The notes: generated by a model from the letters alone, not told the origin. A stretch of DNA of 24,000 nucleotides from Candidatus Bathyarchaeia archaeon (GCA_050013255.1 JBEKFP010000001.1:695048-719047); one strand, 5' to 3'. Positions 2,855-24,000 are shown, numbered from the stretch's first letter. A program made the numbers and translations.

Positions 2855-2937
2855 TGGTGATGTTGAAAGTCATGGAATCTGCAATCTTGAAATACGGCGG
2901 GATTCATGTCGCCTCCTGACAAAGAAGGGGATTCTAG

Positions 2938-6705: not shown

Positions 6706-6714
6706 GATGATAGC

Positions 6715-6987: not shown

Positions 6988-7115
6988 CGCGACGCCTTAG
7001 AGGCTGCATGCATTCAGGGCGAAGGATGGCGAACCCGATGGCATTTCATGAACACACTAAATACGAGCCTACCCATACTTCCTCCATCTCAGAAAATTAA
7101 TGCCGGCGAAACGTA

Positions 7116-7883: not shown

Positions 7884-7900
7884 CTCGCCCAGTGTTCGCG

Positions 7901-8062: not shown

Positions 8063-8109
8063 CTGCCCGCGCAACCCCATACTGGCTGCCGTAAGGGCAG
8101 GATTATTGG

Positions 8110-8406
8110 ATGTCAGCCTCCGAAGATTTGAAGTCAGCCTCCACAACTTTCGCTGCGTTAGGTAACGTTGTGCGGCTTCGCATTCTACTGATGCTGATGG
8201 ATAGCAAGAAACCCTTGCACATTACTGCTGTCGCGAGCAACCTGAAAATGGATTACGGCGGGATTTACAGACACGTCGAAGTTCTAACGGAGGCAGGTCT
8301 CATACAGGTCTATGAGGTGGGTAGGTCGAGGGTTCTCTCACCTCTCAACGTGGATCTTCTGCGCGACCTCGTTTCGAAAGCGAAAAGCTTCAGCAAAAAG
8401 CGATGA
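8110..8406 (+). CDS. ArsR/SmtB-family transcriptional regulator
   Basis: 98 aa. FAALGNVVRLRILLMLMDSKKPLHITAVASNLKMDYGGIYRHVEVLTEAGLIQVYEVGRSRV is the classical ArsR HTH-plus-wing layout. Confidence 0.8.
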   Translation: MSASEDLKSASTTFAALGNVVRLRILLMLMDSKKPLHITAVASNLKMDYGGIYRHVEVLTEAGLIQVYEVGRSRVLSPLNVDLLRDLVSKAKSFSKKR

Positions 8407-8454
8407 TCTAAGCCTATAATTGACATGACTTTATGATTATTTAGTGAAATTGTC

Positions 8455-8486
8455 ATAATGTAAGGGTATTGTTATAATGTAAGGGT
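8455..8486 (+). repeat. Tandem 13-mer ATAATGTAAGGGT x2 (19-nt period), candidate operator/promoter element
   Basis: Identical 13-mers at 8455..8467 and 8474..8486, in the AT-rich gap between the ArsR gene and the permease gene. Confidence 0.4.
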
Positions 8487-8503
8487 TAAGTAGTTGTGAC
8501 TTA

Positions 8504-9214
8504 TTGTGCGCACAATTTGTGGTTTCGTTGGCCGACGGACTGTTTGCCAGGCGAAGCGTGGCGTTAACTGGTGCGGCCGTTTTTGGGAGCTTGGCGGCTC
8601 TAACAACAATTGTGCTTCCCGCCAACATTCAGCCCGCATTCCCATTATTGAGCTTCCTACGTTTTGATCCGGCTGAATTGTTCGATGTCCTAGCCTTCCT
8701 AATCTTCGGGCCTATACCCGCGCTGATAACCGCCACCGTTCACTGGGCAATCCTTGCAGAAACTGGAACTAATGGTATCTTGGGCCCGACGGGGAAGTTC
8801 GCCGCAGTCTTGTCGACGCTGTTAGGGCTATGGTTAGGAAGCATGGCATATCGGCGCATAGCACAAAAAAGCACTCGCACTTCTCTGGCTCTAGGCACGA
8901 TGCTGGGTTTCGCAGCTTTAGCTCGTGTCGGGTTGATGCTTGTCGTGAACTATTTCATTTTCACGTACATTGGGCCAGTTATTTTTGGAATCAATTACCT
9001 CGGCTTCAGCCAAAAATCGCTAGCCGCGGTGGGAATGCAGTTCGCGAACTCTTCGCAGGTGCTTTGGGCGATGCTCCTCTTCACGAGCATCTTCAACGGC
9101 TTGCACGCCGCCTTCTCCGTGGTAATCCCATGCTTGATTTTCACGCCCTTGAGTTTGAAGGTTCCTGAAATCGCCTCAGGCCATCCTTGGATTAGCAAGT
9201 TCACATCCCACTAG
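8504..9214 (+). CDS. Polytopic membrane protein, ECF-transporter S-component-like (substrate unknown)
   Basis: 236 aa with a TTG start and 5-6 hydrophobic helices. FDPAELFDVLAFLIFGPIPALITA resembles the conserved helix-1/2 region (..FGP..G) of ECF S components. The assignment is from memory, not a search. Confidence 0.45.
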   Translation: MCAQFVVSLADGLFARRSVALTGAAVFGSLAALTTIVLPANIQPAFPLLSFLRFDPAELFDVLAFLIFGPIPALITATVHWAILAETGTNGILGPTGKFAAVLSTLLGLWLGSMAYRRIAQKSTRTSLALGTMLGFAALARVGLMLVVNYFIFTYIGPVIFGINYLGFSQKSLAAVGMQFANSSQVLWAMLLFTSIFNGLHAAFSVVIPCLIFTPLSLKVPEIASGHPWISKFTSH

Positions 9215-9250
9215 CGAAACGTTCCCCACTGAAACTGCACGGTCCTTTCC

Positions 9251-10177
9251 TTGATCGTTGCCTTAGCAGGAGGAGTTGGAGCAGCAAGATTCCTCGAAGG
9301 CCTAATTCGAGTAATTCCCCAGAAAGAAATCACGATCATAGGAAACGTCGGCGATGACATCAACGTCTACGGCCTCCACGTCTCCCCAGACTTGGACATA
9401 GTCACTTACACACTCGCCGGCCTTTTCGACAAGAGAAAAGGCTGGGGCTTTCGAGGCGACACATTTCATTGTCAAGCGTTGCTTCGAAAGTACGGTTTCG
9501 AAACCTGGTTCAACCTGGGCGACCGCGACCTAGCAACCCACATCTATCGTACGGAAGAACTTCACCGAGGCAGGCGGCTGTCGGAGGTTACTGCAGACCT
9601 AGTTTCGCGTTTGGGGCTTCGAGTGAAGCTGCTTCCTGCAAGCGACGATCTGCTCCAAACATACGTACTTTCTGGAGGTCGACAAATGCACTTCCAAGAA
9701 TATATGGTAAGACGAAAGACGAAGCCAAAGGTTCAAGGAGTAGTTTTTCGCGGCACTGAATCCGCCAAGCCAGCAAAACATGTTGTCGAATCGATTGCGA
9801 GAGCAAGGGGCATCATTGTCTGCCCAAGCAACCCGATTGTTAGCATCGGCGCAATCCTCGCCGTTCGTGGCATCAAGTCCGCGCTCAGGAAAACTACGGG
9901 GAAGGTTGTTGGAATCAGCCCAATCATTGGCGGTAAGACAGTGAAAGGGCCAGCTGACAAATTGATGAAGGCAGTGGGGATCGAGGCGAGTGCACTTGGA
10001 GTAGCCGAATGTTACAACGGTTTCTTGGACACGCTCATAATCGACCGCCTCGACAGGGAACTTGCACCAGACATCAAAGCCACCGGAGTTAAACCGATTG
10101 TAACGAACACGCTCATGAAAACAATGGCTGACAAAGTTCGTTTGGCGAAAGTTGCAATAAGTGAATTCAGTCGTTGA
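9251..10177 (+). CDS. cofD: 2-phospho-L-lactate transferase (LPPG:FO transferase), F420 biosynthesis
   Basis: 308 aa with a TTG start. The blocks IVALAGGVGAARFLEGL, GNVGDD, SPDLDIVTYTLAG, NLGDRDLATH and CPSNPIVSIGAILAV are characteristic of CofD. Confidence 0.88.
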   Translation: MIVALAGGVGAARFLEGLIRVIPQKEITIIGNVGDDINVYGLHVSPDLDIVTYTLAGLFDKRKGWGFRGDTFHCQALLRKYGFETWFNLGDRDLATHIYRTEELHRGRRLSEVTADLVSRLGLRVKLLPASDDLLQTYVLSGGRQMHFQEYMVRRKTKPKVQGVVFRGTESAKPAKHVVESIARARGIIVCPSNPIVSIGAILAVRGIKSALRKTTGKVVGISPIIGGKTVKGPADKLMKAVGIEASALGVAECYNGFLDTLIIDRLDRELAPDIKATGVKPIVTNTLMKTMADKVRLAKVAISEFSR

Positions 10178-10839
10178 AAACTCGTTCACGTCAAGTGGGG
10201 CGTGTAGATGCTATAGTCCCCTTGAACGTTCTCAGAAAATCGAAAGCACGACTTTCACCCATCCTTAGGCCGGCTGAGAGAGAGCAATTAAGTGTTGCAA
10301 TGTTGAAAGACGTTCTCTCCGCCTTGCGGATGGCGAAGCGGATTCATTCGGTAACAGTTGTTAGCGCCGATAAGGGCGTGCGTAGAATCTGCAAGCGTCT
10401 CGGGGCTAGTTTTCTCTGGGAGGGGAGAAGGCGTGGCCTCAACAGGGGGGTCAAGTTAGCTGTTAGACATGCTCAGCGGAGAGGTGCTTCCTCCGTCCTT
10501 GTGATTCATTCGGATCTCCCGCTTCTCAAACCACTGGAAATTGACACGTTCCTCAAGCGGTCCGAGGGATGTTCAGTGGCGCTTACACCATCCAAAGACC
10601 GTGATGGAACTAACGCCCTGCTCATGAGTCCCCCACAGGTGATCCGCCCAGTCTTTGGCAAAGACAGCTTCCGCAAACACCTGTCGCTGGCCAGGAGGAG
10701 AAAAGCCCGCAGCAGAGTGTTGCTGTTCAATGGCATTGGTTTCGACGTTGACACGCCAAGGGATCTCATTGAGTTGATGCGGCGGCCGTTGCGGAATGAA
10801 ACCGGCCGAGTCCTACGAATGTTTCGAAAACCGACTTAG
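10174..10839 (+). CDS. cofC: 2-phospho-L-lactate guanylyltransferase, F420 biosynthesis
   Basis: DAIVPLNVLRKSKARLSPIL..ERE.L..AML.DVL, HSDLPLL and PSKDRDGTNAL match the CofC (MobA-like) pattern. TTG 10174 overlaps the cofD stop (TTGA). GTG 10195 (VGRVDAIVPL) is an equally plausible start. Confidence 0.8.
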   Translation: MKTRSRQVGRVDAIVPLNVLRKSKARLSPILRPAEREQLSVAMLKDVLSALRMAKRIHSVTVVSADKGVRRICKRLGASFLWEGRRRGLNRGVKLAVRHAQRRGASSVLVIHSDLPLLKPLEIDTFLKRSEGCSVALTPSKDRDGTNALLMSPPQVIRPVFGKDSFRKHLSLARRRKARSRVLLFNGIGFDVDTPRDLIELMRRPLRNETGRVLRMFRKPT

Positions 10840-10841
10840 CG

Positions 10842-11069
10842 GTGCACCGAAAGATACTCAGGGCAAAACAATTTAGAGGCAAGCGGGTGAGTTTGGGTGG
10901 GGTGTTTGAATTAGCATCGCCTAGGGAAAGCCACGATAAAGTGCTCCAGCTTCTGGAGCAGCATACTAAGTGGTTTTCAGAATCAATTCCGCTGATTGCA
11001 TCGGAGAACGTTCCCAGCCCCGCGGTTCGCGAAGCTATAGTTTCAGACTTCGGGAATCGCTACGCGGAA
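10842..11069 (+). CDS. glyA: Serine hydroxymethyltransferase, exon 1 (ends ...SDFGNRYAE)
   Basis: IPLIASENVPSPAVREAIVSDFGNRYAE aligns to the E. coli GlyA segment [28 protein letters not shown]. An in-frame TAG follows at 11070. The start is uncertain: GTG 10842 or GTG 10887. Confidence 0.85.
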
Positions 11070-11103
11070 TAGGCTTAAGCCGATCAGGCTTAGGCCTCCG
11101 TAG
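11070..11103 (+). other. Candidate bulge-helix-bulge (BHB) intron inside the glyA mRNA, 34 nt
   Basis: TAGGCTTAAGCCGATCAGGCTTAGGCCTCCGTAG. Central 4-bp helix 11064-11067 / 11098-11101. 3-nt bulges at 11068-11070 and 11102-11104. An 11-bp intron hairpin 11071-11081 / 11087-11097 with loop GAUCA. Removing these 34 nt joins RYAE to GWVGERVYAGC in frame. Confidence 0.7.
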
Positions 11104-12264
11104 GGATGGGTTGGGGAACGCGTATACGCGGGCTGCGTATACATAGACCAAGTTGAGAGGCTCTGCATAGACCTAGCAAAGGACCTATTCCGGGCCGAAT
11201 TCGCGGACGTTAGGCCAGTCTCTGGGGTTTGCGCAAACCTCGTGGTTTACACCACTTTCACAAACCCCGGCGACCGCATGCTCGCTTTAGCTATACCAAA
11301 CGGCGGCCACATCTCGAGTGGGCGCAAAGATTTCTCGGGAACTGCAGGCTCGGTCCACGGCTTGGAAGTAGAATACTTTCCCTTCGACCGTCATGAAATG
11401 AACATCGACGTCGACAAGGCGAAGCAGAAAATCGAGAAGATGGTCAAGGAGGAGAATAAGCCGCCCAAACTTGGGATGTTTGGTGCAAGCCTCTTCCTCT
11501 TCCCCCAACCCCTGAAGGAGCTAGCTGAGTCATTACATAATGTTGGTGCGACCGTCGCCTACGACGCGGCACATGTTGCGGGGCTCATTGCGGGAGGAAT
11601 CTTCCAAGACCCACTGAGGGAAGGTGCCGACGTAGTATGCCTGAGCACCCACAAAACGCTCTTCGGCCCGCAGGGAGGGGCGGTACTCTCCTTCGAGAAA
11701 TACGCGGAGCAAATCAAGAAGGCAACGTTTCCGTCAAACACGAGCAACCACCACCTGCATCACCTAGCTGGGAAAGCGGTTGCTTTCGCGGAAATGTTAG
11801 AGTTCGGAAAACAGTACGCTAAGCAAGTTGTGGCTAATGCCAAAGCCCTGGGTCAAGCGTTGCATGAACGAGGCCTTAACCTTCTGGGCGAGCACAAGGG
11901 TTTCACTGAGTCGCATCAAATCGCAGTCGACGTATCCAAGTATGGCTTGGGGGGAGACATGGAGAGAGCACTTGAAAGCGCCAACATAATCGTCAACCGC
12001 CAACTATTACCCGGGGACATTCAAGCGGGAAGGCACTACCAAAACCCAGGCGGCATCCGCATCGGCACCTCGGAAATCACCAGGATCGGGATGAAGGAGA
12101 ACCAAATGGTCGAAGTGGCTGAGCTAATCAAGAGAATCGTCATCGACAAGCAGGACCCTAAGAAAGTGAAGGCCGATGTGCTAGAGTTTAGGAAAGATTT
12201 CCAGAAGGTTCACTACTGCTTCGAGAGCGCAAAGAAAGCCTACGAATACATCAAAGTACGGTAA
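11104..12264 (+). CDS. glyA: Serine hydroxymethyltransferase, exon 2 (frame open from 11104; track lists only 11242..12264)
   Basis: The frame reads GWVGERVYAGCVYIDQVERLCIDLAKDLFRAEFADVRPVSGVCANLVVY..., colinear with E. coli [49 protein letters not shown]. The PLP-lysine block STHKTLFGPQGG is present. Confidence 0.88.
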   Translation, partial: GWVGERVYAGCVYIDQVERLCIDLAKDLFRAEFADVRPVSGVCANLVVYTTFTNPGDRMLALAIPNGGHISSGRKDFSGTAGSVHGLEVEYFPFDRHEMNIDVDKAKQKIEKMVKEENKPPKLGMFGASLFLFPQPLKELAESLHNVGATVAYDAAHVAGLIAGGIFQDPLREGADVVCLSTHKTLFGPQGGAVLSFEKYAEQIKKATFPSNTSNHHLHHLAGKAVAFAEMLEFGKQYAKQVVANAKALGQALHERGLNLLGEHKGFTESHQIAVDVSKYGLGGDMERALESANIIVNRQLLPGDIQAGRHYQNPGGIRIGTSEITRIGMKENQMVEVAELIKRIVIDKQDPKKVKADVLEFRKDFQKVHYCFESAKKAYEYIKVR

Positions 12265-12278
12265 TTGGTGGTTCGAGG

Positions 12279-13061
12279 ATAATTACGAATCCTAAGGTCA
12301 CCGTCATAACTGGAGCGAGTAGCGGCATAGGTGCCGCACTAGCGAAAGAGCTGGGGGCCGGGGGCCACCGGCTAGTTCTCGGAGCCCGCCGAGAAAAGGA
12401 ACTGAAAAATGTCGCAGCACATGCTGGAACTGAAGCAATCCCAGTCGTCACGGATGTTACTCGCCGGCGGGACGTCGAACATTTACGCGATGTTGCAATT
12501 GAGAAATTCGGTCACGTTGATGTTTGGGTGAACAATGCGGGCCGCGGCTCTGGGAAGATTGTGATGGAGTTGACGGAGGCGGAATTGGATGAGATGATTG
12601 CTGTTAACCTGAAATCCGTTTACTATGGGATGCAGGCCATCGTTCCGCATTTTCAGCAGAGGGGCGAGGGACACCTCATCAACGTATCCTCCTTCCTGGG
12701 AAGGGTTCCTTTGGCAACCTACCGGTCCGCCTACAATGCGGCTAAGGCGGGGGCGAATATGCTAACCGCAAATCTGCGCATGGACCTGAGGACGAAATAT
12801 CCACGGATACATGTTTCATTAGTTTTGGCGGGGTTCGTTGATACCGATTTTCACAAAGTCGCAGCCACCCCTTTCCCCGTAAAGGCGGGAACCCGCGTCG
12901 GCGAAGCGGTGGTTCAATCCGCTGAAGAGGTCGCCGAGCAGATCGCATCCCTCATAGAGCATCCAGTCGCGGAACTCTACACCAACCCAGGCCTCAGAGA
13001 TCTTACGGTGCGATACTATCAAGACGTAGGCGCATTCGAAGAACGAATGGGCCAAAGATAG
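12279..13061 (+). CDS. Short-chain dehydrogenase/reductase (SDR); 5' end lacks a canonical start codon in frame
   Basis: The frame reads IITNPKVTVITGASSGIGAALAKEL... (TGxxxGxG), NNAG at the track start 12528, and a catalytic S...YNAAK. There is no ATG/GTG/TTG in this frame between the stop at 12189 and 12528. Confidence 0.8.
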   Translation: MITNPKVTVITGASSGIGAALAKELGAGGHRLVLGARREKELKNVAAHAGTEAIPVVTDVTRRRDVEHLRDVAIEKFGHVDVWVNNAGRGSGKIVMELTEAELDEMIAVNLKSVYYGMQAIVPHFQQRGEGHLINVSSFLGRVPLATYRSAYNAAKAGANMLTANLRMDLRTKYPRIHVSLVLAGFVDTDFHKVAATPFPVKAGTRVGEAVVQSAEEVAEQIASLIEHPVAELYTNPGLRDLTVRYYQDVGAFEERMGQR

Positions 13062-13092
13062 TCTATCAACTTAGACGGCTCTAGATTGTTGT

Positions 13093-13665
13093 GTGGTTTC
13101 GATGCCGGTTCTACGCCCAGGGGAAGTGTACAAGGAGGTTGTTTTGAGGGATGGTAGGAAGGCGGTTCTTAGGGTTCCTGAGTGGGGTGACCTGGACGAC
13201 TTCCTAGGTTTGATAAACGGGTTAGTTGACGAACACGCCGACATTCTAAGAAGCACACACTCTACGCGGGGTGAGGAGGTTGAATGGTTAGCGGACCGGT
13301 TGACCGCGATAGAGAAGGGCAGCCTCATCGCGTTAGTTGCGGAAGTGAACGGGAGGGTTGTTGCAAGCTCGGACGTCGCCCAGAGGACTCCGGAAAACCC
13401 GCAACACAATCATGTTGGAGTCCTTGGCATCGCCATCCTCAAGACCGCCAGGGGGCTTGGGCTCGGAAAAGTGTTAATGGATTCACTCCTTAAACTCAGC
13501 AAAAAAGCAGGTTTGAAAATAATAATCCTGGACATGTTCGCCACTAACAAGGTGGCAAGGCGCCTATACGAAAAGGCCGGATTCGTAGAGGTCGGGAAGA
13601 TACCTAAAGCCATCAACCAACACGGAAAATACATTGACCTGATCCGGTTCGCCATCGAAACCTGA
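13093..13665 (+). CDS. GNAT-family N-acetyltransferase
   Basis: 190 aa. VGVLGIAILKTARGLGLGKVLM (acetyl-CoA motif A, RGxGxG) and NKVARRLYEKAGFVEVG are typical GNAT blocks. ATG 13102 is an alternative start. Confidence 0.8.
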   Translation: MVSMPVLRPGEVYKEVVLRDGRKAVLRVPEWGDLDDFLGLINGLVDEHADILRSTHSTRGEEVEWLADRLTAIEKGSLIALVAEVNGRVVASSDVAQRTPENPQHNHVGVLGIAILKTARGLGLGKVLMDSLLKLSKKAGLKIIILDMFATNKVARRLYEKAGFVEVGKIPKAINQHGKYIDLIRFAIET

Positions 13666-13691
13666 AAGCAGATTTGACTATTAATTTACGT

Positions 13692-15263
13692 CTAGAACAG
13701 TTTGTCTTTGTCCATGAGCACTTCGCCGTCTGAGTATCTCTGGCCGTACATTTTCCTGATGATGAGAAAACGCCTGGTCCTCTCCGCTAGTGGTTTTTCG
13801 AATATTTCAATTACTCCGTCGAAGAAGTCGATGATACTTTGCGTTTCCTCCTTTGTTGTGGTCAAGGGGTTGAGGGTCGCTATGATCGTGAAACCCTCAG
13901 CCTTGCGTTTTCCGACAAAATCCGTTAACCACCTCCGGGTTAGGACGGACTTATGGCGAAGCAACAAATCAGATAAAATATCTATGATCATAATCCGCTT
14001 GGTGGCCTTTTCCTTTGCGATAACATCCTTGAGGGCTAGAGCCAATGATATGTTGGCGTCGTTAAAGTTCTCAAAGCTCGGTATCTTCAACAGGTTCGGG
14101 CCATGGATGATTCTGTCCGCCTGCGGGGATAAGGCGTAGAACCCGTTCGGGTACCTAGACGTCAGGTCCTCGGTCCTGCCGATATCATTCGAGAGAAAAA
14201 TCGCTAACTTTCCAGATGATAAGGCTGAGTTAACGACTCTCCTCAGGAGCAGGTCCCTCTCATCATAAGATGGAGAGACGATGACGACACCGAATTTTTC
14301 AGGGATGCCCCCACCCAACGCCTTGTCCAAGTCCGCGTAACCCGTCGAGACGATTGTTGGTGCTTGAACGACCTTTGGCGGGACGATGGTCTTTGCGGGA
14401 ACGATGGGTTGCGGTGAAACGGTGTCTTTCCTAGGTACTTGAATCACTGCTGGGCGTGGTGGATGCTCCTCTATCCTCCTTTCCTCTTTCAAGGTGGCTC
14501 GTGGGTGTTCCTCTTTCAATTTGGCGGCAAGAGATGGCTTTCTTCTTCTCGCGACAACCAAGACACCGGCGACTATCGCGACCGCAGCAGCTACGAGCAA
14601 ACCTAAGCTCCCAAACGGAAGACCGACCTGGCCAACTTGGGGAATCGTTGATGTCAAAATCAATAACTTGGTCGTGGATTCAGTAGCATTACCGTATGAC
14701 GCAACCAACGTTGTGACGGCTGTCCGTATTGACCAGGCGCCCGCAACGAATCCAGGACTAAAATTGAACATCCATGCAATGAATTGTCCGGCCTCAGGGG
14801 CAACCCAGTCTCCCTGACCGGCGACACCTTTTTGGTGGTACAGCGCTTGGAATTGGAAGGTGGGCGCTGTGCCTTCACTGTTACAGCCGGCATTATCGGC
14901 CTTAGCAAAAGCGGTTGTGATGTAGAAATCAGACGGAAGAGTGCCAAAATTAGTCCAATTTACATGAAAACTCTGCGCCGCGATTGCATTAAACTCGATT
15001 TTTTGATAGGGTTTTGATAGGGCTCCAGATCCGCAGGTACTGAGGTCGAACTCAATCGGTCTGGAACCTTGACTACCGAGATAGCCAGACGTGGTCTCTG
15101 TAACGTAACTGGTTGTAGCAGCGTAGGTGTACAGTACCGTGGTCGTGGCTTGGGTTGTAGAGGTTACGTAACCCTGGCCCGACACCTTTGGCGGCATAGC
15201 ACTGAGTGCTGGAAGCAGAGCTAGAATCAGCAGAAGAGCGAAAGCGATGCGGCACCAGTGCAT
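13692..15263 (-). CDS. Receptor-like membrane protein: signal peptide, Thr-rich extracellular domain, 1 TM, cytoplasmic KaiC/RecA-like domain with degenerate Walker A
   Basis: 523 aa. MHWCRIAFALLLILALLPALSA is the signal peptide and GLLVAAAVAIVAGVLVVARRRK the TM helix. The C-terminus VSTGYADLDKALGGGIPEKFGVVIVSPSYDERDLLL...IMIIDILSDLL...TRRWL...ATLNP...FFDGVIEI...IIRKMYGQ is colinear with KaiC-like ATPases (STGIxxLDxxLGGGxPxGxxxLxxGxxGxGKT), but SPSYDERD replaces GxxGxGKT. Confidence 0.7.
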   Translation of the reverse strand: MHWCRIAFALLLILALLPALSAMPPKVSGQGYVTSTTQATTTVLYTYAATTSYVTETTSGYLGSQGSRPIEFDLSTCGSGALSKPYQKIEFNAIAAQSFHVNWTNFGTLPSDFYITTAFAKADNAGCNSEGTAPTFQFQALYHQKGVAGQGDWVAPEAGQFIAWMFNFSPGFVAGAWSIRTAVTTLVASYGNATESTTKLLILTSTIPQVGQVGLPFGSLGLLVAAAVAIVAGVLVVARRRKPSLAAKLKEEHPRATLKEERRIEEHPPRPAVIQVPRKDTVSPQPIVPAKTIVPPKVVQAPTIVSTGYADLDKALGGGIPEKFGVVIVSPSYDERDLLLRRVVNSALSSGKLAIFLSNDIGRTEDLTSRYPNGFYALSPQADRIIHGPNLLKIPSFENFNDANISLALALKDVIAKEKATKRIMIIDILSDLLLRHKSVLTRRWLTDFVGKRKAEGFTIIATLNPLTTTKEETQSIIDFFDGVIEIFEKPLAERTRRFLIIRKMYGQRYSDGEVLMDKDKLF

Positions 15264-15325
15264 GAAGACGCCTTGCTATCGATTCGCATTTAATTCTTGG
15301 GACAGACGAGACGTCAGGCTATAAC

Positions 15326-15988
15326 TCATGGCATGTTCTTGGTTCTTTCCGAGTTGGGCATTCGGACCTTCAGGATTTTGAATCCTAATTGGACTGCTGG
15401 GCCTATGGCGAGGGCGGATACTAGCGTTCCGAGCCATGCGGGCCCCCCTAGCAACCAACCGACCACGACCACGCTTATCTCGATTATTGTGCGCGCGATT
15501 CGCACGCTAGTTTTCCCGAGGCGTGACAGCGCGAGCATCAAAGTGTCCCTCGGCCCAGCCCCAGCGTTCACTCCAATGTAGATCGCGGTCGCAAATCCCA
15601 TGATCAAAACGCCGAGGAGCAGGTATCCCAACTGAACGAGGACGGAACCGGGAACAAGCGGAACGTAGGGCCTCAGGACGTCGACCCATACGCCGATGAA
15701 GATCATGTTCGCGACCGTCCCCCAACCCAACGGCTCTTTGAGGGCTACGTCGACGAGAATTATGATGAACGCGACGCCAATGTTGGATTCGCCAAGCGTG
15801 ATCGGTAAATGGTACGTTAACGCCATTTGGAGAACGTCCCAGGGGTCCAAGCCTAGGCTCGCCTGAACCATCACATCAATCGCCAACCCGAAGAGCAGAA
15901 AACCAATTTGAATAACGAAGAAGTCCCAGGCGAACCGCCTCCAACCCACCCAACTGAACTTGAAGAACCTACTGTTCATGGTTCGCAA
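15326..15988 (-). CDS. YczE-like integral membrane protein (COG2364-type)
   Basis: 220 aa. GLDPWDVLQMAL..ITLGE and GAGPRDTLMLALSRLGKTSVRIARTIIEISVVVVGWLLGGPAWLGTLVSALAIGPAVQ match the B. subtilis YczE pattern as I remember it. ATG 15979 is an alternative start. Confidence 0.7.
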   Translation of the reverse strand: MRTMNSRFFKFSWVGWRRFAWDFFVIQIGFLLFGLAIDVMVQASLGLDPWDVLQMALTYHLPITLGESNIGVAFIIILVDVALKEPLGWGTVANMIFIGVWVDVLRPYVPLVPGSVLVQLGYLLLGVLIMGFATAIYIGVNAGAGPRDTLMLALSRLGKTSVRIARTIIEISVVVVGWLLGGPAWLGTLVSALAIGPAVQLGFKILKVRMPNSERTKNMP

Positions 15989-16049
15989 GTCTGAACACCT
16001 GCCCGCAGAGTCTCCATTCTTCCATGGCGCATTGTCCGTTAGGTTTCGT

Positions 16050-16631
16050 ATGGGGGCGCCTTCCAGCTGTGTTCTTCATATAGATGTGCCAGTCTTGGTG
16101 GGAGCGGTTCCCTTGGGTTCCCGCATCTTGCTCTGCATCTGTTTGATTGCAGGAGTACTGCTCATGATGATTTCAAGTTCCAATGTCGCGGCGCAAAGCT
16201 GCCAAAAGGTGACCGTTTCATCCAATTATCCTGAGCAGGCCGCTCCGAAAGAACAGGTACAAGTGACTACGACCATAGCCGGCTCATGTACCTCGGGCCC
16301 CGAAGACTACTTCTCGGTGAGAGTGGATGTTACGGATCGTGTTTCCAAGGCTCTACTCTCATCGAACAGCGGTCCGATAGGCTACAGTACCACCAATTTC
16401 TCAGTGAACGTACAGAATTCAGTGACAACGCCAACAGGCAATCTGACGTGGCTAATAGAAATCGATAGTTACCTGATTATAGACGCGCAGGAATCCCATT
16501 TGAATTCAACAACAGGCAGGATTCAAGTTGGCAGCACGCCCATACCTGAATTCCAGGCCGCCCAACCGATCGTACTCCTACTAGCATTAGCCGCAACATT
16601 AAGCCTGAACCGACGGAAACTTCCCAAATAA
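16050..16631 (+). CDS. Secreted protein with C-terminal PEF-CTERM-type (archaeosortase) sorting signal
   Basis: ATG 16050 is preferred because track start 15960 would overlap the minus-strand permease gene. The signal peptide is ..ILLCICLIAGVLLMMISSSNVAAQS. The extreme C-terminus PIPEFQAAQPIVLLLALAATLSLNRRKLPK has a PEF motif, a hydrophobic helix and a basic cluster. Confidence 0.65.
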   Translation: MGAPSSCVLHIDVPVLVGAVPLGSRILLCICLIAGVLLMMISSSNVAAQSCQKVTVSSNYPEQAAPKEQVQVTTTIAGSCTSGPEDYFSVRVDVTDRVSKALLSSNSGPIGYSTTNFSVNVQNSVTTPTGNLTWLIEIDSYLIIDAQESHLNSTTGRIQVGSTPIPEFQAAQPIVLLLALAATLSLNRRKLPK

Positions 16632-16859
16632 CGCGGGGGGCCAACTTTTCCGCGGACTGTGCGCCTTGAATCGCTTCCTCACATGCCCTGCCTTCCTGAG
16701 GAAGAATAAGGCCGAATCCCAAATTCGATCAGCTCGTTTTCTTACCTAAACGAACTGGCAGAAAACATCTGTGCGCACCATTAGCCCCGCACACACTATC
16801 CTAACACAAACGAAAATTTCTTTAGAGAAGATTCACGATAGTTACTCGAAGATGATGAA

Positions 16860-17497
16860 ATGGCACCTAATCCTTTGAGGATAGGACAATCGAACTTCGG
16901 AAGTTCTGTGACGCAGCTGACTTCAAGCATCGCTGGATATCCTGCCCTGGAGGTAGATAACCCGAGCCCCAAGAGTGGTCAGGCCATCCTGGGATTATCC
17001 ACAGCAAAAAGCGGAGACAACACTGGTGTGTATGGGCAGTCCGACTCGACCGGTGGAACAGGAATTCTTGGAATTGCGATCTCAGCAAGCGGCCTGAGTT
17101 TTGGCGTACGGGGTGAGGCATTTTCCACCGAGGCATAGCGGTCCGTGGGGTTGCAAGCGGAAAAACTGGCGCGAATTTCGGCGTTCATGGTGCAGCCCTG
17201 TCAAAGAAAGGGGCTGGCGTTTTGGCAGAGCACATGAAGAAAGGAGACGCTCTGCACTGCGAAGGTCACGCGATGCCGACCACTGACAACAAGTTCAATC
17301 TAGGTGATTCGAAGAGGCGTTGGAGACACCTTCACGCGAAAACCATAACGTCCGGCGACCTCGTATTCGATAACGGTGTAAAAGCCACCGAGGACGGAAA
17401 CGGACTTGCCTTCACCAATGCGAAAGGAACAAAGATCGCGCGATTGGACTCCAAGGGTAATCTACACATTAAGGGAAGAGTAATCAAAGACCTCTAG
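16860..17497 (+). pseudogene. Gly-rich repeat, tail-fibre-like protein split by a 1-nt frameshift near 17129..17138
   Basis: Frame 0 (16860..17138) ends ...GLSFGVRGEAFSTEA*. Frame 2 is open from 17117 and continues the same Gly-rich repeat pattern (GIAVRGVASGKTGANFGVHGAALSKKGAGV...) into track ORF 17222..17497. One extra G after 17133 gives ...TEGIAVRGVAS.... Confidence 0.6.
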
Positions 17498-17599
17498 CAC
17501 TCAAGGTCAATTCGCCTAAGATCCCGACGCTAACATTCAGTTGAATCAAACCAAAACGAAGTAGTCGAGAGCGCAACGTAACCTCCCGTATTTTTCTAG

Positions 17600-17695
17600 C
17601 GCGCACACACTGAATTTCACGCAGACCAATCGGTCGTACTCCTCCTAGCCTTAACCGCAATATTGGGCCTGTACCGACGGCAGCTTCACAACTGA
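17600..17695 (+). pseudogene. Orphan PEF-CTERM-like tail fragment (remnant of a paralogue of 16050..16631)
   Basis: It reads RAHTEFHADQSVVLLLALTAILGLYRRQLHN* directly after an in-frame TAG (17597..17599), with no start codon. Positions 17612..17695 match 16548..16631 at 66 of 84 positions by hand count. Confidence 0.6.
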
Positions 17696-17843
17696 CGCGG
17701 GGAAGATGGCGTTTGTCCGTATCTCGTTCTTCAGGTGGTTTGACGATTCGCTGCTGCGAGTAGCTTGGCAAGAAAGTGGGTAGAAAAGGGCGAGGAGTTC
17801 GCTTGATTCTACTAGGCCTTAGGGCGTTCGAAAGACACATTAC

Positions 17844-17874
17844 TTTATACCTGCAAATTCCGAAACACGTTTCG
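17844..17874 (+). promoter_or_regulatory. TATA-like box plus inverted repeat upstream of the 17896 gene
   Basis: TTTATA at 17844..17849 lies 47 nt before the ATG. CGAAAC-AC-GTTTCG (17861..17874) is a perfect 6-nt-arm inverted repeat positioned where a transcription start or operator would sit. Confidence 0.3.
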
Positions 17875-17895
17875 AACACTATCGGCGCAGGCAGA

Positions 17896-19293
17896 ATGGA
17901 TAAGTTAAAACCTAGAGCATTTGTTTCGTTTCTTTTGCTTCTAGCAATATGCATTTCATTATTGTCTATACCAAACGCGAACAGTCAATCAGCCGCGGTA
18001 ACGACCACGACTACTATTGAGCAGCCTCCCTCGGGTCAGTGTGCCGAAATTTCGCTTGCTTTCTCAGCGCGAGCAGGCCAGGAATTAGCGGGAACATTTT
18101 CGTCGGATGCATCAATCAGTTTCTACATTCTATCCCCGGCAGATTTTGATGCCATCAGAAATCCAAATTGCAGTCTTCCATCAAGCGCAAGACCACTTTA
18201 CAGCCAAACGAACTCAGTCGGCCATGATAATCCATACCGCACCCTAGTCTTCCCGTCCAACGGAACTTATTACATCGTTTTCGTCCTCCTAAACAGCAGC
18301 CAGGCTGAGCTCGCCAGTGGTTTTGCAACTGTTGAAGTGAGCTTCCCAGCTTCCACAATTTTCATCACGACCGAAGCCTCTTACACGATAAGCTCATCTA
18401 GCATAATCGTAAGGACAACTCAAAGCACAACTGAAAGCGCGACGGTTGCGTCCACCGGCCCATCTTTCGGAACGTTCGGACTGATCGGATTGGTTGTTGC
18501 GGTGGGTCTGATAGCTTCAGTCATGGTGTTCATGAAGCGAGGAAAGTCACAGACAGGGCAGAAAGTGGTCCTGAAACAGGAGACTGTAAAGAAAGAAGTT
18601 AGGCCTGAAAGCCCGCAGCCGAAACCGGGCCCGGCGGGACAGAATATCTCCACAGGCTATCCCGAACTAGATACCATGTTGGCCGGAGGCCTTCCGCTCG
18701 GGCTTAGCATAGTTCTGACGGGCCCACCCTGCGATGAAAAAAACCTGATTCTCAGCCGTTTCTTGGAAACGAATCTGATATCCGGCCGCGAATGCATTTT
18801 CATTTCAACCTCACTTGACCGCGTTCGCGAAATGCTTTCGAAACACAAGAACCTCCATGTAATCCTCTGCAACCCGCAAGCTGAAACCATCGCTGCTCCC
18901 TATCCGGAAGTCGTCAAAATCAAAACCGTGGACAGCCTGATTCAGATCAATTTGGAATATGACGTCGCGGCGGGTGGTTTGAGTTCAGGAAAATCAGCAA
19001 TTCTTTGCTTGGAGATCTTGGATGACGTGCTTCTTGAGCACCACGCGGCAACGAGGAGATGGCTCATGGACATTCTGGGGAGGGGCAAGGGAATTCAAAT
19101 GACCTGCTTGGCGACGCTTAATCCGGCAATGCACTCCACACAGGAATTACAAGCCATTCTGGAAACATTCGACGGCCACATCGACCTGTACGAGGCCGCG
19201 GTCCAAGGGCGACCAAAACTAATCCAAGTCAGAAAGCTTGGGGGACGAACGTTCCTTGACAGCGAAGTACGCGTAGAGAAAGACCGAATATGA
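17896..19293 (+). CDS. Paralogous receptor-like membrane protein with degenerate KaiC/RecA-like cytoplasmic domain
   Basis: ATG 17896 gives the signal peptide MDKLKPRAFVSFLLLLAICISLLSIPNANSQS (the track start 17776 runs through the orphan-tail region). The TM helix is FGLIGLVVAVGLIASVMVFMKRGK. The C-terminus ISTGYPELDTMLAGGLPLGLSIVLTGPPCDEKNLIL...TRRWL..ATLNP..FDGHIDL..VRKLGG has GPPCDEKN in place of GPPGxGKT. Confidence 0.7.
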   Translation: MDKLKPRAFVSFLLLLAICISLLSIPNANSQSAAVTTTTTIEQPPSGQCAEISLAFSARAGQELAGTFSSDASISFYILSPADFDAIRNPNCSLPSSARPLYSQTNSVGHDNPYRTLVFPSNGTYYIVFVLLNSSQAELASGFATVEVSFPASTIFITTEASYTISSSSIIVRTTQSTTESATVASTGPSFGTFGLIGLVVAVGLIASVMVFMKRGKSQTGQKVVLKQETVKKEVRPESPQPKPGPAGQNISTGYPELDTMLAGGLPLGLSIVLTGPPCDEKNLILSRFLETNLISGRECIFISTSLDRVREMLSKHKNLHVILCNPQAETIAAPYPEVVKIKTVDSLIQINLEYDVAAGGLSSGKSAILCLEILDDVLLEHHAATRRWLMDILGRGKGIQMTCLATLNPAMHSTQELQAILETFDGHIDLYEAAVQGRPKLIQVRKLGGRTFLDSEVRVEKDRI

Positions 19294-19382
19294 AAACTAA
19301 CCAGCACACGCCCTTCGAAGCCGAGCAACCAATCTCAACTGTACATACCGCCTTTGTTATTGCAATATTGCAGATCTAATTC

Positions 19383-19408
19383 AAAAAAATACAGATCGAA
19401 ATTTTTTT
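19383..19408. terminator. Bidirectional oligo-T terminator candidate between convergent genes
   Basis: A7 (19383..19389) and T7 (19402..19408) present a T-run to transcripts arriving from either side, the archaeal oligo-T termination signal. They lie between the 19293 and 19471 gene ends. Confidence 0.45.
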
Positions 19409-19470
19409 CGAGTTACACGGGCCCGAAAAGGATCCTTCGGTCATCACTGTTGTAAGAGTAGAATACTCTA

Positions 19471-20799
19471 CTAAGTCGTAGCCTCTGATGCAATCCGTGC
19501 ATCAGTAGATGACGTAAGCTTTGCTGTACCTGAATGCGTTGTGAGAAATACGATCTTGTCGGTACCATCGCGACGGCGCACAACGTGCTTCCTTGATTCC
19601 AACTTACCCAACAATCTGCTCATGGCCCATCCATCGACATCAAATTGGCTAATGAGCTCACTTTGTTTTTGTGGACCGTTTTCCTGCAAATACATTATTA
19701 CTTGGACGGCTAACGTCCTGAGTTCACTATGTTTTGGAAAGAGCCCATGGAACTCCAATTCCATGTCTTCAGCCAATCTATCTAACGGAACTGACTTCTT
19801 GACAGTCTCCGTATCAATTTCCTGAGATCGGTCTGGCCTTTCCCAGAAATCCAAGGTTAGCTGAATATATCTGAGAAATCTTCTGAAGATCCCTCGACTC
19901 ATGCGCGCAAGCGTGAGAAGCGCGTCCTCGGAGAACGGGTAAGTTGTCTCGAATTCGAGCCGATAGGCGTCAACCATTTTTTCAGGATTCATGGGTCTGA
20001 GTTCAAACTGCCTCATCTTGTCCAGAAAATAGTGGTCTCGAAACATCTCCTTTTGGATAGCTACAACGATTGTTGCTGTGCTTCCTGCGCCAACGAGGTT
20101 GTTCCAAAACCAGTAAATGCCCTCGAAATCGCTATCCATCCGCCGTTTGTCTGTTTTCGAATAATCCGACGTGTCGATAAGAATGACGTGCGAGCTTAGA
20201 AGCGTCTTCAACCAAGTGTCACGTCGTAGCTTCTCAGTGGCAGCCTTCCCAATCATCCTCTCCGCCCATAGTATGCCAGAAATCCCCTTTTCAATCTGCA
20301 TCAGTCTGTCGACAACGTATCGTTGAACGCCTTCCTGGAACTCGAGGAACCTATAGAAATCTGCCCCGTTCATCGTGTCGGAACAACTTTGAAGCTCCCC
20401 CAACAAAGCCGATAAGTATCGGGGAAGAAATTCGTCGGTCGCTTCATGAGTGAAGTTCAGAAGACTCGAAAAAAGTTCCTTCTCATTACGCCACTTGAAG
20501 ATGACCCTCGACGAGTCCAATGAAAATGGTATGCCTGCAAAAAGCGCCTTAAGGGCGGTACTCTTCCCCACCCCTTGCTGCCCAACGAGACCAAACAACC
20601 CACGTCTACCCGAAGCGAATTCACGAGCCATGCTCTCCAGAACGTCGGGAACAACGTAGGAATAACGAAGAGAATCTGGATCGCGAGTTTCACCGGCAAG
20701 CTGACTAGCCCAGTATCGAATTCTATCCACAGGAACGAGCTTCCTCAAATCGACCGCCAAATTCCTCGGCGAACACTCAAGCACAGTCGAGAATATCAC
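19471..20799 (-). CDS. Divergent AAA+ ATPase with C-terminal winged helix (Orc1/Cdc6-like architecture)
   Basis: 442 aa with a GTG start. Motifs: Walker A GLVGQQGVGKST, Walker B SHVILIDTSDY, a lid-like FSEDALLTLARMSRGIFRRFLRYIQ, and a C-terminal wHTH LRTLAVQVIMYLQENGPQKQSELISQFDVDGWAMSRLLGKLESRKHVVRRRDG. The pre-P-loop LRYSYVVPDVL echoes LRHDYMPSHL of the chromosomal Cdc6 in this window. Confidence 0.65.
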   Translation of the reverse strand: MIFSTVLECSPRNLAVDLRKLVPVDRIRYWASQLAGETRDPDSLRYSYVVPDVLESMAREFASGRRGLFGLVGQQGVGKSTALKALFAGIPFSLDSSRVIFKWRNEKELFSSLLNFTHEATDEFLPRYLSALLGELQSCSDTMNGADFYRFLEFQEGVQRYVVDRLMQIEKGISGILWAERMIGKAATEKLRRDTWLKTLLSSHVILIDTSDYSKTDKRRMDSDFEGIYWFWNNLVGAGSTATIVVAIQKEMFRDHYFLDKMRQFELRPMNPEKMVDAYRLEFETTYPFSEDALLTLARMSRGIFRRFLRYIQLTLDFWERPDRSQEIDTETVKKSVPLDRLAEDMELEFHGLFPKHSELRTLAVQVIMYLQENGPQKQSELISQFDVDGWAMSRLLGKLESRKHVVRRRDGTDKIVFLTTHSGTAKLTSSTDARIASEATT

Positions 20800-21087
20800 C
20801 GGAGTCTGAATAGTCAGTGAGATGAGTGAAAGTGCTCAGCAAACTTCTTGCGCTATATGAGACGGGAAACTTACTCTTCGGAAGTCTGAGGAGAGGAGCC
20901 GACATGACGACTAGCCATCCACACAGTACGCACCAAGCCACGAGACTACCCCGCCCTGCACAGCGCAATTGTAGGCTCGTAATTCAAGTACGCGAACCCG
21001 ATCTTGCGAATACAAGAGATTGCCTGGTTCAAATTTGGCTGCCCGCACCACCATACCGGGGATATTACATAGGGCTCATTTTCTGAT

Positions 21088-21139
21088 GGCCACGTGGAAA
21101 AGGCTTAGGGGACGTGGAAATCCACATGTAACCACGTTG
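21088..21139. repeat. ACGTGGAAA direct repeats with embedded palindromes (ORB-like / operator-like)
   Basis: ACGTGGAAA occurs at 21092..21100 and 21112..21120 (20-nt period). Embedded elements are the CCACGTGG palindrome (21090..21097), the inverted repeat GTGGAAATCCAC (21114..21125), and a third CACGT at 21133..21137. The first copy reads CACGTGGAAAAGGCTTAGGGG, a core followed by a G-string. Confidence 0.45.
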
Positions 21140-21157
21140 TCAAGTTTGAGAAACCAA

Positions 21158-21568
21158 TCAGATGCACGAGGGTTCGAGCAAGGGGGGCATAGTACCATAG
21201 AGTCCAGAAATGGCAACTGCGGTCAACCAGAGACAGTTTAGCGAATGCTGCTGAGAAAGAACTAACGCAGTTATTGACTTACCCATCCCGGCTTGCACAG
21301 CAGGGTCGCTTTTCGTTATCTTATCAAGATCGACGTGAACCCACATGTTACGGTAGTCAGTTCTGATCTTGTTCAACACACACGCTATCTGCGAAGTGAT
21401 CACATTCTTAGAACCTGAGTAGCTGATTGACTCCTCCCACTTCATTCCTTTCGCTTTATTCTTGCCCATTCCATGATCTAGGCAATAGAATCTATGTGCA
21501 GGTTCCGCACAAGTTCCACTGACGATGGCCGCGGAAGCAAACATTCCACTAAAGTAAGCCTGAGTCAC
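21158..21568 (-). CDS. Hypothetical protein (136 aa from GTG; frame stays open upstream to 21682 without a start)
   Basis: Track ORF with no recognised family and a hydrophobic C-terminus (LWLTAVAISGLYG). An ATG at 21686 lies in the +1 frame; dropping one T from the TTT at 21659..21661 would fuse MNGFDTTRS to QVNPSQAESNIKGLKLG.... Confidence 0.4.
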   Translation of the reverse strand: MTQAYFSGMFASAAIVSGTCAEPAHRFYCLDHGMGKNKAKGMKWEESISYSGSKNVITSQIACVLNKIRTDYRNMWVHVDLDKITKSDPAVQAGMGKSITALVLSQQHSLNCLWLTAVAISGLYGTMPPLLEPSCI

Positions 21569-21723
21569 CTGGTCCCAGAGTTCATCTACAACGACATCAA
21601 TTGATGGACCAAGCTTGAGGCCCTTGATGTTGGACTCCGCCTGGCTAGGGTTTACCTGAGAAACGAGTTGTGTCGAATCCGTTCATCTCGTCTTGTTAGA
21701 GAGCCAGCTACTTAATACTAGGC

Positions 21724-21741
21724 CGCGGGAAATTTCACGCG
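21724..21741. promoter_or_regulatory. 18-nt near-perfect palindrome in the divergent promoter region
   Basis: CGCGGGAAATTTCACGCG has 8 of 9 symmetric pairs and the core GAAATTTC. It ends 36 nt upstream of the ATG at 21778. Confidence 0.3.
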
Positions 21742-21777
21742 TCTGAAGCATTCCACAACGATAAAGGAGAAAGCGAT

Positions 21778-24000
21778 ATGGAGAGCAAAGAAATAGTTCC
21801 CAAGTCATATCATTTCACAGATCCAACTCAAGAATGGATCTACAAGAAACTGCTACTTCTAGTAGGCCCTGGTCCAGCCTTATTCTATCAAGATGCTTGT
21901 TCCATCATGGCAGAGTCTATTGCTCTTCAATCAACAACCCACTTAGTGGGGCATCTCCTTCGCGAGATCGAGAGTGCGCTCCGGGATGTGTTGGAGCCGA
22001 TAGTGGTACATATCACTCCTGCGCACGATAAAGACGAATCTGCCAAACACAAGGCCGAGATACTCGCAATTCTTAGCTACTTGGACATACCGGACTCTGA
22101 TCCCATCGCAGTTGCGTGGATGAAGCTAGCCGGTAGAGGATCAGACTATGCTCTTCACGCGCGAGCCCATCGCAGAGATCTCTCAGCACCGCGTCCGATT
22201 GATCAGGACTTTGTTCGCTTTTGGGATGATACTCAGATGATCCTAAAAATTGTACTCGACAAATTTGAGACGCATTATGCGTCCGTATTTGACATCCTAG
22301 ACAAGACACTCGTTACGAGTAGTCCGAGTATTGCTGACATAAAACAACTCCGAGCGCATGTACCCAATAACATGGTCACATGGAGCTACTTTTTCGGCAG
22401 ACTTCAAAGCACAAAATGGCTGAGTCAGCTGAAACTGGCAGGATTCTTTGATGCTCCGCCTGATCCTCAACTTGATGACGAAAAGAAAACGATCAGGATG
22501 ATACTATGGCCTCAGTCACAATATTTGGCCAGGATAGCATCAGAGAGCCCAGTTGAGGTTGTTAAAATTATCCTCGATATACCAGAAACAGAGAATCTCT
22601 TTGTTCATTCTGACCTTGTTGACGCAGCTCTAGCGATGCCACCGGTCCTCGCAGCAGAATGGGCAAAGAAGGAAATAGACTGGATCGAGAAGCGCGATAG
22701 GATCAACTTCCTGTTACCACAGAAGCTAGGCGAGTTGATCGGACATCTGGCAAGAGGCAAACAAGCCGATGCAGCCCTTGAGCTAACCAGATCTTTGCTA
22801 GGCACATTCTCCTCGGAGGATGAGAGAAAAGGTATTTCTCCGTTGGAGCCACAAGCTCGACTTGATACATGGCATTACGCGCAAATCCTCCAGACGGCAG
22901 TTTTGGACCTTATAGCAGCAGCGGGAGAAAAAGCGCTCGTCCTGTTCTGCGAGCTCCTCGAATCGGCAATTCAGACGTATGTAAAAAGTAGCGGTCCTGA
23001 GGATTACTCCTATCTGTGGAGGCCAGCGGTCGAAGACAGTGAACAGAACCTTCTCTCAGATCCGAAGGAATTGTTGGTGTCCGCTGTTCGCGATTCAGCA
23101 TTTCAGATTATCAAAATGGACTTGATACGCCTGCCGGCGATTGTAGGTCAATTAGAGAAACGAAAATGGCTGATTTTCCAACGCATAGCTCTTCACCTAT
23201 TGCGGACATTTCCATCTGGCTATGATACTCTGATCGCAGAGTGGCTCGCAGATCAACTCAAGTTCGGTAACCTTGGCCTTTGGCATGAATACTCGCTACT
23301 TGCCCAAGATCATTTTGGTGACCTGTCCCTTGAGGACCAAGACAAGATCCTCAAATGGATTGGCGATGGCCCTGATGTCAAGAAATTCAATGCTATGGAA
23401 GGAAACCGCACAGGCAAGGCTCCATCTAAAGAAGAGATCGAGCATTATGTGAAGCGTTGGCGGTTGACATATTTAGCATCCATTCATAGTTCATTGCCAG
23501 AAAAGTGGATAACTCGTTACGATGAATTGAAGAAGGAGCTAGGCGAACCAGAACATCCGGAATTCTTGATATACAGTGGTGGGGGTTTCGGCCCTACAAG
23601 TCCAAAGAACGCCCAAGAATTGCAGTTGATGAGTGCCGCGGAAATCGTGAGTTTTTTGAAGACTTGGCATCCTAATGGCGGATTTCTTGCATCTTCTCCA
23701 GAGGGCCTTGGACGTGTATTGTCTGGAATTGTGTCTTCAAATCCAGCCCGTTTCGCGGAGGTAACTAACCTATTCCGAGAGATTGAACCAACCTACGTTC
23801 GGGCTTTACTCACAGGTCTCCGTGAAGCGGTTAAGCAGAAGCATTCCTTTGCTTGGGCTACAATTCTTGAGCTTTGCCAATGGGTAATGGAACAACCTCG
23901 CACCATTACGGATCGAAAGGATAATTTCGAGTCCGACATGGGTTGGGTATGGACGAGGAAGACTATCGCCGATCTGCTCTCCGCAGGTTTTGAAACTGGT
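21778..24000 (+). CDS. Large uncharacterised alpha-helical protein, first 741 codons (runs off the window end; absent from ORF track)
   Basis: ATG 21778 is preceded by GGAG and is the first start after the in-frame TAG at 21697. I translated all 741 codons by hand without a stop (MESKEIVPKSYHFTDPTQEWIYKKLLLLVGPGP ... ADLLSAGFETG). There is no P-loop. A Leu/Trp-rich helical repeat character runs throughout. The N-terminal ~190 aa contains R120-x6-H127 (RGSDYALH). Confidence 0.75.
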   Translation, partial: MESKEIVPKSYHFTDPTQEWIYKKLLLLVGPGPALFYQDACSIMAESIALQSTTHLVGHLLREIESALRDVLEPIVVHITPAHDKDESAKHKAEILAILSYLDIPDSDPIAVAWMKLAGRGSDYALHARAHRRDLSAPRPIDQDFVRFWDDTQMILKIVLDKFETHYASVFDILDKTLVTSSPSIADIKQLRAHVPNNMVTWSYFFGRLQSTKWLSQLKLAGFFDAPPDPQLDDEKKTIRMILWPQSQYLARIASESPVEVVKIILDIPETENLFVHSDLVDAALAMPPVLAAEWAKKEIDWIEKRDRINFLLPQKLGELIGHLARGKQADAALELTRSLLGTFSSEDERKGISPLEPQARLDTWHYAQILQTAVLDLIAAAGEKALVLFCELLESAIQTYVKSSGPEDYSYLWRPAVEDSEQNLLSDPKELLVSAVRDSAFQIIKMDLIRLPAIVGQLEKRKWLIFQRIALHLLRTFPSGYDTLIAEWLADQLKFGNLGLWHEYSLLAQDHFGDLSLEDQDKILKWIGDGPDVKKFNAMEGNRTGKAPSKEEIEHYVKRWRLTYLASIHSSLPEKWITRYDELKKELGEPEHPEFLIYSGGGFGPTSPKNAQELQLMSAAEIVSFLKTWHPNGGFLASSPEGLGRVLSGIVSSNPARFAEVTNLFREIEPTYVRALLTGLREAVKQKHSFAWATILELCQWVMEQPRTITDRKDNFESDMGWVWTRKTIADLLSAGFETG

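Follow-up and report, generated by a model that had tools for sequence, protein, structure and literature searches.

Dsr1 (defence-associated sirtuin 1) is a single protein whose N-terminal SIR2 domain depletes NAD+ (Gao et al. 2020, Garb et al. 2022). It has been reported that the sensor of Avs7 is common to Dsr1 and to non-STAND proteins whose effector is an NADase, a nuclease or a kinase, that Salmonella SeAvs7 and E. coli EcDsr1 are both triggered by the major capsid protein of the phage, and that defence is lost when the effector is mutated (Lee et al. 2026, preprint, PMC12803255). The same preprint describes a Streptomyces family member with a 'HEPN-like RNase' effector and the recruitment of the host factor EF-Tu by Avs7 (PMC12803255). 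Here, a 24,000-nucleotide stretch of DNA, referred to as the window, from a Candidatus Bathyarchaeia archaeon (GCA_050013255.1 JBEKFP010000001.1:695048-719047) was analysed with regard to the large gene at its right end, gene C, and to the neighbouring genes A and B. An earlier note, made from the sequence alone, had taken these three genes for an uncharacterised defence module in a foreign, low-G+C island. We consider it likely that gene C encodes instead a single-gene antiviral candidate of the Dsr1/Avs7-sensor family with a HEPN-like, nuclease-type N-terminal domain, and that genes A and B are its unrelated neighbours.

Gene C is located on the + strand and starts with an ATG at 21778; 741 of its codons fall within the window. 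Contig L001 (12,223-base overlap, 0 mismatches) extends the window rightward to 35,182 bases in total, and in this extended sequence gene C ends at coordinate 25182; its full-length product (P0001), from a 'Candidatus Bathyarchaeia archaeon' metagenome-assembled genome, has 1134 aa. The gene had been described as divergently transcribed, coding for more than 741 aa, without an NTPase motif and without resemblance to any named system; all but the last of these statements agree with the completed gene, in which neither a P-loop or other NTPase motif nor a match to an NTPase family was found. The last is overturned by the Dsr1 profile of PADLOC (PDLC04166), which matches the window part of gene C with E = 6.6e-36 (aa 184–713 against profile positions 305–839) and the full-length protein with E = 1.6e-53 (aa 184–1078 against positions 305–1175 of 1227). 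The Dsr1/Avs7-type sensor region thus defined by PADLOC runs from aa 184 onward, that is, over 22327..24000 on the + strand, where it is cut by the window end. Profile positions 1–304, the SIR2 part, have no alignment to gene C; similarly, Pfam scans of the window part and of the full-length protein found no SIR2 or SIR2_2 and no other family, and a gene C profile (A1) searched against PDB sequences gave nothing meaningful. The NCBIfam Dsr1 model aligns in the same register as the PADLOC profile, with E about 1e-5. Judged from sequence, homology to the Dsr1 sensor region extends over the C-terminal ~950 aa of gene C.

The N-terminal domain of gene C (aa 1–195; 21778..22362, + strand) is a conserved, all-helical domain, and from its sequence it appears to be a putative effector in the place that SIR2 holds in Dsr1. 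Structure predictions were run for two proteins, this domain and gene A; the AF2 model of the domain has a pLDDT (predicted local distance difference test) of 87, a pTM (predicted TM-score) of 0.80 and eight helices. In Foldseek, TM-scores of at least 0.5 were reached only with a HEPN toxin (7ae8_D/7ae6_A; TM 0.48–0.62, E about 5). Four residues, H59, R62, W114 and H131, are invariant across the forms of the domain that are fused to the sensor and the forms encoded by a separate gene. A profile search with the domain over 1.84 billion representatives returned 1277 cluster representatives at E ≤ 1e-3, and the best 150 matches, in which architectures were viewed, were close family members only, with no further architectures; the same profile gave nothing meaningful against PDB sequences. 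Taken together with its position, the domain is probably a HEPN-like, metal-independent nuclease effector, and it is probable that it corresponds to the HEPN-like domain of the preprint.

The relatives of gene C show that this domain is modular. A homologue search returned 166 relatives of about 1100–1180 aa, every one annotated as hypothetical, and the neighbourhoods of C relatives were surveyed in 80 genome loci. About 35 of the 80 carry the fused form as in the window. In 23 others, the protein is shorter (~960 aa), beginning at about residue 200, and a conserved gene of ~240 aa lies directly upstream on the same strand (L011, L013, L017, L020, L022, L026 and 17 others); six of these ~240-aa products were aligned, and they correspond to the N-terminal domain and have retained H59, R62, W114 and H131. 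At L073, the domain is a separate gene of 199 aa (E 9e-34). At L014, L037, L061 and L064, a related gene of ~300 aa is found upstream instead, and in both of the loci tested, L014 and L061, this gene is SIR2_2 (1e-12 and 2e-17), so that these two loci are, by their domain content, split forms of Dsr1. In addition, tblastn revealed haloarchaeal plasmids on which an N-terminal ATPase precedes the gene C-type C-terminal region within one protein. Fused, split, SIR2_2 and ATPase arrangements thus make the N-terminal slot an exchangeable effector position, and the separate upstream genes mean that sensor and effector can be distinct polypeptides. One of the plasmid genes was observed on the Halobiforma lacisalsi plasmid pHLAJ5I (L094), where the coding sequence 3651–7826 specifies a 1391-aa 'ATP-binding protein' with an N-terminal ATPase and a gene C-type sensor region; this is probably a STAND protein of the Avs7 type from an archaeon. 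Several haloarchaeal plasmids have genes like it.

Relatives of gene C are distributed over many bacterial phyla and several archaeal lineages, and the distribution is patchy; both this spread and the surroundings of the relatives are of the kind usual for defence genes. The closest two (64% and 60% identity) have called neighbours that differ from those in the window, one lying beside a CAP12-PCTIR TIR gene and the other beside a phage integrase. Other relatives adjoin type I restriction-modification (R-M) S subunit genes (6 members among the PADLOC matches listed, in which redundant S-subunit models predominate, with 149 neighbours scanned), and one is carried by a Tn7-like element of a Streptomyces plasmid. 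WP_331721222.1, encoded on a plasmid of Streptomyces, is homologous to C over its full length, with the same N-terminal domain, at 34% identity. Clustering of the neighbours in the C-relative loci gave only split effector genes, R-M subunits and lineage-specific genes. The expectation that such genes would be found next to known defence genes is therefore borne out for the C relatives by the R-M S subunits and the TIR gene, and for gene C itself by a Shedu gene. The latter, SduA (L001:14617-15402, extended 26394-27179, − strand; 261 aa; Pfam SduA_C 6e-12, PADLOC SduA 6e-24), sits 1.2 kb past gene C and supports the defence-island character of the region.

The region around gene C is accessory in another respect. 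A KaiC-like gene on the + strand, ending at 19293, and gene A on the − strand, ending at 19471, converge on an intergenic spacer (19294..19470) that contains the left border of a strain-variable region at about 19314. Over 8904–19314, the window is collinear with L090 and L091, two metagenome contigs of about 95% identity to it, and their similarity stops at 19314, 21 bases past the stop of the KaiC-like gene, so that 19.3 kb is the left edge of the strain-variable region. Beyond the break, L091 carries PIN toxins, small open reading frames (ORFs) and an S8-protease-like ORF of 747 aa, as read by eye from the ORF translations. The right part of the window is the left end of a strain-variable accessory region that holds several independent genes and not one system. 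Of the defence-type region proposed earlier, the defence character is supported by the synteny break at 19314, the Dsr1-family gene and the nearby Shedu gene, but the three-gene module is not retained.

Base composition gives a less marked picture. Mean G+C in 500-nt windows is 0.516 over 1–19293 and 0.478 over 19294–24000 (Mann-Whitney p = 4e-4), and the four 60-nt counts on which the low-G+C island had been based (39, 36, 23 and 27) are exact; the drop is significant, but those samples are extreme and the shift amounts to ~4 points. The mean over 19294–35182 of the extended sequence is 0.481, and the reduced G+C persists to at least 35.2 kb, for instance in a sugar epimerase (0.459) and a UDP-glucose dehydrogenase (0.482). 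Since the lower G+C carries on through these sugar-metabolism genes, there is no right border within 16 kb. Even lower G+C (0.43) is found at 1–1000 of the window, and the tetranucleotide distance in 3-kb windows makes the low-G+C stretch no more deviant than elsewhere. The view of a compositionally foreign segment is thus borne out in part only: the G+C is lower, but no right border lies within 16 kb and tetranucleotide usage is normal. The search for the remainder of the contig, which had been proposed for completing the large gene and finding the border of the island, did complete gene C at 1134 aa but revealed no right border; the region contains no tRNA, no Rfam match and no meaningful att-like or flanking repeat, and there is no integrase among the called genes of L001.

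Gene A (19471-20799, − strand) encodes a 442-aa P-loop AAA+ ATPase with a C-terminal MarR-type winged helix, as had been read from the sequence earlier. Its motifs are the Walker A sequence GQQGVGKST, the Walker B-like sequence ILIDTSDY and a lid-like segment; Pfam gives MarR_2 at 1.1e-6 with weak AAA_16 and AAA_assoc_2 matches, and a gene A profile (A2) searched against PDB sequences finds MarR structures at 3e-6. The AF2 model, built with 29 homologues (pLDDT 86, pTM 0.82), comprises an AAA+ base, an inserted helical region (aa 121–201), a lid and the winged helix. The best Foldseek match is Orc1 (7jk5_A, 1.9e-6), followed by Cdc6, RFC, RuvB, Apaf-1 and BrxC, and the matches to Orc1, Cdc6, RFC and RuvB have values of 1e-6 to 1e-4 with a Foldseek probability of 1.0. 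Gene A therefore resembles archaeal Orc1/Cdc6 in its AAA+ base, lid and C-terminal winged helix and in its top Foldseek matches. It differs in that the Orc1/Cdc6 family models (Cdc6_C and NCBIfam equivalogs) have no gene A match in Pfam or NCBIfam, in that the winged helix is of MarR type, in the helical insertion, in its location in a variable region and in the occurrence of family members near toxin-antitoxin genes. A homologue search returned 266 proteins of about 400–450 aa; no relatives were found in IMG/VR viral contigs, and PADLOC gave nothing past the P-loop. In three other loci with A relatives, the neighbours include PIN and MazE (toxin-antitoxin) genes and small ORFs. Gene A is a stand-alone Orc1/Cdc6-like ATPase of the AAA+ and winged helix-turn-helix type, and an unrelated neighbour of B and C.

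Gene B is an ORF on the − strand at 21158-21568 (136 aa from the GTG at 21568, its first canonical start) whose frame is open to 21682 (21158..21682, 175 codons), which agrees with the range of 136–175 aa given before. Among 5.8 billion proteins, its relatives form four clusters only, including P0386 (172 aa, 74% identity) and P0388 (184 aa, 39%). At the position of the initial Met of both, the window has an in-frame stop and then Thr (21682-21690), and an ATG near the expected start lies in another frame, at 21684-21686. Because the Met position of the relatives falls directly after an in-frame stop, the start codon of gene B in the window has been lost; the alignment suggests that a frameshift removed it, and gene B may be a remnant. 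The gene contains the motif 'IRTDYRNMWVHVD', in which IRTDYRNxWVHVD is invariant among the relatives and RNxxxH is invariant in the four clusters. Pfam DUF4145 (PF13643) reaches 13 bits on B and on P0386, against a cut-off of 23.1, with E about 0.1. Gene B is a near-orphan, weakly DUF4145/HEPN-like neighbour with no relation to C. A relationship among B, the N-terminal domain of C and gene D, which lies beyond the window, as three HEPN-like units was also considered and ruled out, as hhalign found no relation of the N-terminal domain to B or to D.

With regard to the assignment of gene C, the following points weigh against it. The NCBIfam Dsr1 equivalog gives gene C only 23.6–26.4 bits against a cut-off of 1400. 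Foldseek of the N-terminal domain against PDB produced no significant match, and the contiguous Rx4-6H motif of HEPN proteins is not present in the domain, where the conserved elements are HxxRE and AHR. Pfam searches on 29 sequences of the domain gave sub-threshold matches only, to pP_pnuc_1, HepT-like_2 and coiled-coil noise; pP_pnuc_1 (PF18165) recurs among them, always below threshold. That the Streptomyces sp. NBC_00271 protein of PMC12803255 bears the N-terminal domain of C is no more than probable. Moreover, gene D could contribute locally, given its 6-bp distance from C, its shared strand and its HEPN-like motif RDKCAH.

Several of these points would fit an N-terminal domain that is not a nuclease, but either acts as an effector of some other sort or serves, as an adaptor or oligomerisation module, to bring in a factor of the host or one encoded in trans; the missing canonical Rx4-6H motif, the lack of a significant structural or sequence match and the recruitment of EF-Tu by Avs7 (PMC12803255) all speak for this. 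We judge it distinctly unlikely, as the domain is placed where SIR2 and other effectors sit in the family, its invariant His and Arg residues suggest catalysis, its best TM-scores are to a HEPN toxin, and a Streptomyces family member has been labelled a HEPN-like RNase (PMC12803255). That the domain represents an uncharacterised effector class other than a true HEPN RNase, so that a Bathyarchaeia sensor would couple the recognition of archaeal-virus capsids to a new activity, is a possibility that we take seriously while thinking it unlikely; if it were true, the split-gene forms would demonstrate that the sensor is able to act with its effector in trans. The effector might also be supplied by gene D (L001:13411-14259, extended 25188-26036, + strand; 282 aa), which would make C and D a two-gene system of sensor and HEPN-type effector. 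Gene D follows C after 6 bp on the same strand, scores 30.1 bits with Pfam MauJ, for which the cut-off is 28, and carries RLRDKCAH, a HEPN-like motif of the R[DN]xxxH type read from its sequence. A pairing of this kind seems quite improbable, since no D homologue lies beside any of the 80 C relatives searched, the effector position of C is already taken by a conserved N-terminal domain, hhalign finds D unrelated to that domain, and D has no match in PADLOC, NCBIfam, PDB or plasmids.

The idea that A (ATPase), B (small membrane-tail protein) and C (giant sensor) form a new three-gene defence system draws on the adjacency of the three genes in a variable region, on the divergent transcription of B and C and on the absence of all three at this locus in the 95%-identical relative. 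We regard it as very improbable. No homologue of A or B was found by tblastn in the 80 C-relative loci, where the same search with D, Shedu and the KaiC-like protein was also without a match, and blastp of A, B and D against the neighbours of C relatives found none either; the closest two C relatives have other called neighbours; gene A is the only gene common to the window and the three other A loci; B has four relative clusters in all and has lost its start codon here; and C relatives stand alone or with a split effector gene. The trio is therefore neither a module nor a conserved neighbourhood of other genomes, at least in the 80 C loci and the three A loci. At the other extreme, gene C could be a housekeeping scaffold of helical repeats in an ordinary part of the chromosome, for which the small G+C shift, the normal tetranucleotide usage and the sugar-nucleotide enzymes among the rightward neighbours may be cited. 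This is scarcely believable in view of the Dsr1 profile match of 1.6e-53, the patchy occurrence of C across phyla, its absence at this locus in the 95%-identical relative and the association of its relatives with R-M, TIR, integrase and Tn7-like genes.

Read as a stand-alone protein of the Dsr1/Avs7-sensor family, gene C can be compared with the described systems as follows. Like Dsr1, it is a single large protein, with a homologous C-terminal part of ~900 aa, and its type occurs alone and in defence islands. Unlike Dsr1, it has no SIR2 NADase, its N-terminal 190 aa being an unrelated all-helical domain, and it remains far under the NCBIfam equivalog cut-off. Gene C is thus not Dsr1 proper, because the SIR2 domain was looked for and is absent, and depletion of NAD+ is therefore not expected. 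The non-STAND proteins of PMC12803255 share with gene C the sensor family, the lack of a STAND NTPase and a variable N-terminal effector; gene C differs from them in its archaeal host and in the split-gene forms seen in its family. The link to Avs7 lies in the sensor, which is homologous to that of Dsr1 according to PMC12803255, and in the haloarchaeal plasmid proteins that pair a gene C-type sensor with an ATPase, whereas gene C is without an NTPase domain and so without the STAND-type nucleotide-dependent switch. With the sensor homology and the absence of SIR2, gene C thus fits best in the already described Avs7/Dsr1-sensor class, as a member from an archaeon.

By analogy with the proteins of PMC12803255 and by the logic of the family, the trigger, enzymatic activity and outcome may be pictured as follows. 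The sensor of gene C would bind a viral structural protein, probably a capsid protein of the HK97 fold; binding would lead to oligomerisation, which would switch on the N-terminal effector; and the activated effector would degrade RNA or another nucleic acid, by which virus replication would be blocked.

The assignment removes a false lead, the supposed new three-gene defence system, and assigns the large gene to a family for which the viral major capsid protein was identified as the trigger only recently. The SIR2-less subfamily is large, with the 1277 cluster representatives mentioned above, and extends across bacteria and archaea, and its effector chemistry is a concrete question; with the fused and split forms, nature provides a means of testing how the effector is activated by the sensor. 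A Bathyarchaeia member next to Shedu in a strain-variable hotspot also enriches the sparse picture of defence in uncultivated archaea.

The gene content of the window is archaeal, with the large subunit of PolD (DP2, 3289-6705), a PAC2 protein, CofD, CofC, serine hydroxymethyltransferase (SHMT) and KaiC-like ATPases, and a few minor observations were made on these and adjacent genes. The frame of SHMT (glyA) appears interrupted at about 10900-11300: the N-terminal part (…LIASENVPSPAVREAIVSDFGNRYAE) stops near 11.07 kb, the remainder (…VYAGCVYIDQVE…) is in another frame, and the ORF 11242-12264 spans Pfam positions 102-399 only. In the short-chain dehydrogenase gene (12260-12530), the Rossmann motif (KVTVITGASSGIG) lies upstream of the first ATG, GTG or TTG (12528), and gene callers shorten the gene to 165–177 aa; it has either a non-canonical start or is a damaged gene. 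Before the KaiC-like gene, at about 17696-17701 of the window, L090 and L091 have ~1.07 kb of extra sequence (L090 8849-9921), an indel. That gene (17776-19293, + strand) and the one at 13692-15263 (− strand) encode paralogous proteins with 34% identity over 229 aa; both have an N-terminal signal or transmembrane segment, a Ser/Thr-rich extracellular part and a C-terminal KaiC/RecA-like ATPase, which is an unusual, membrane-anchored layout.

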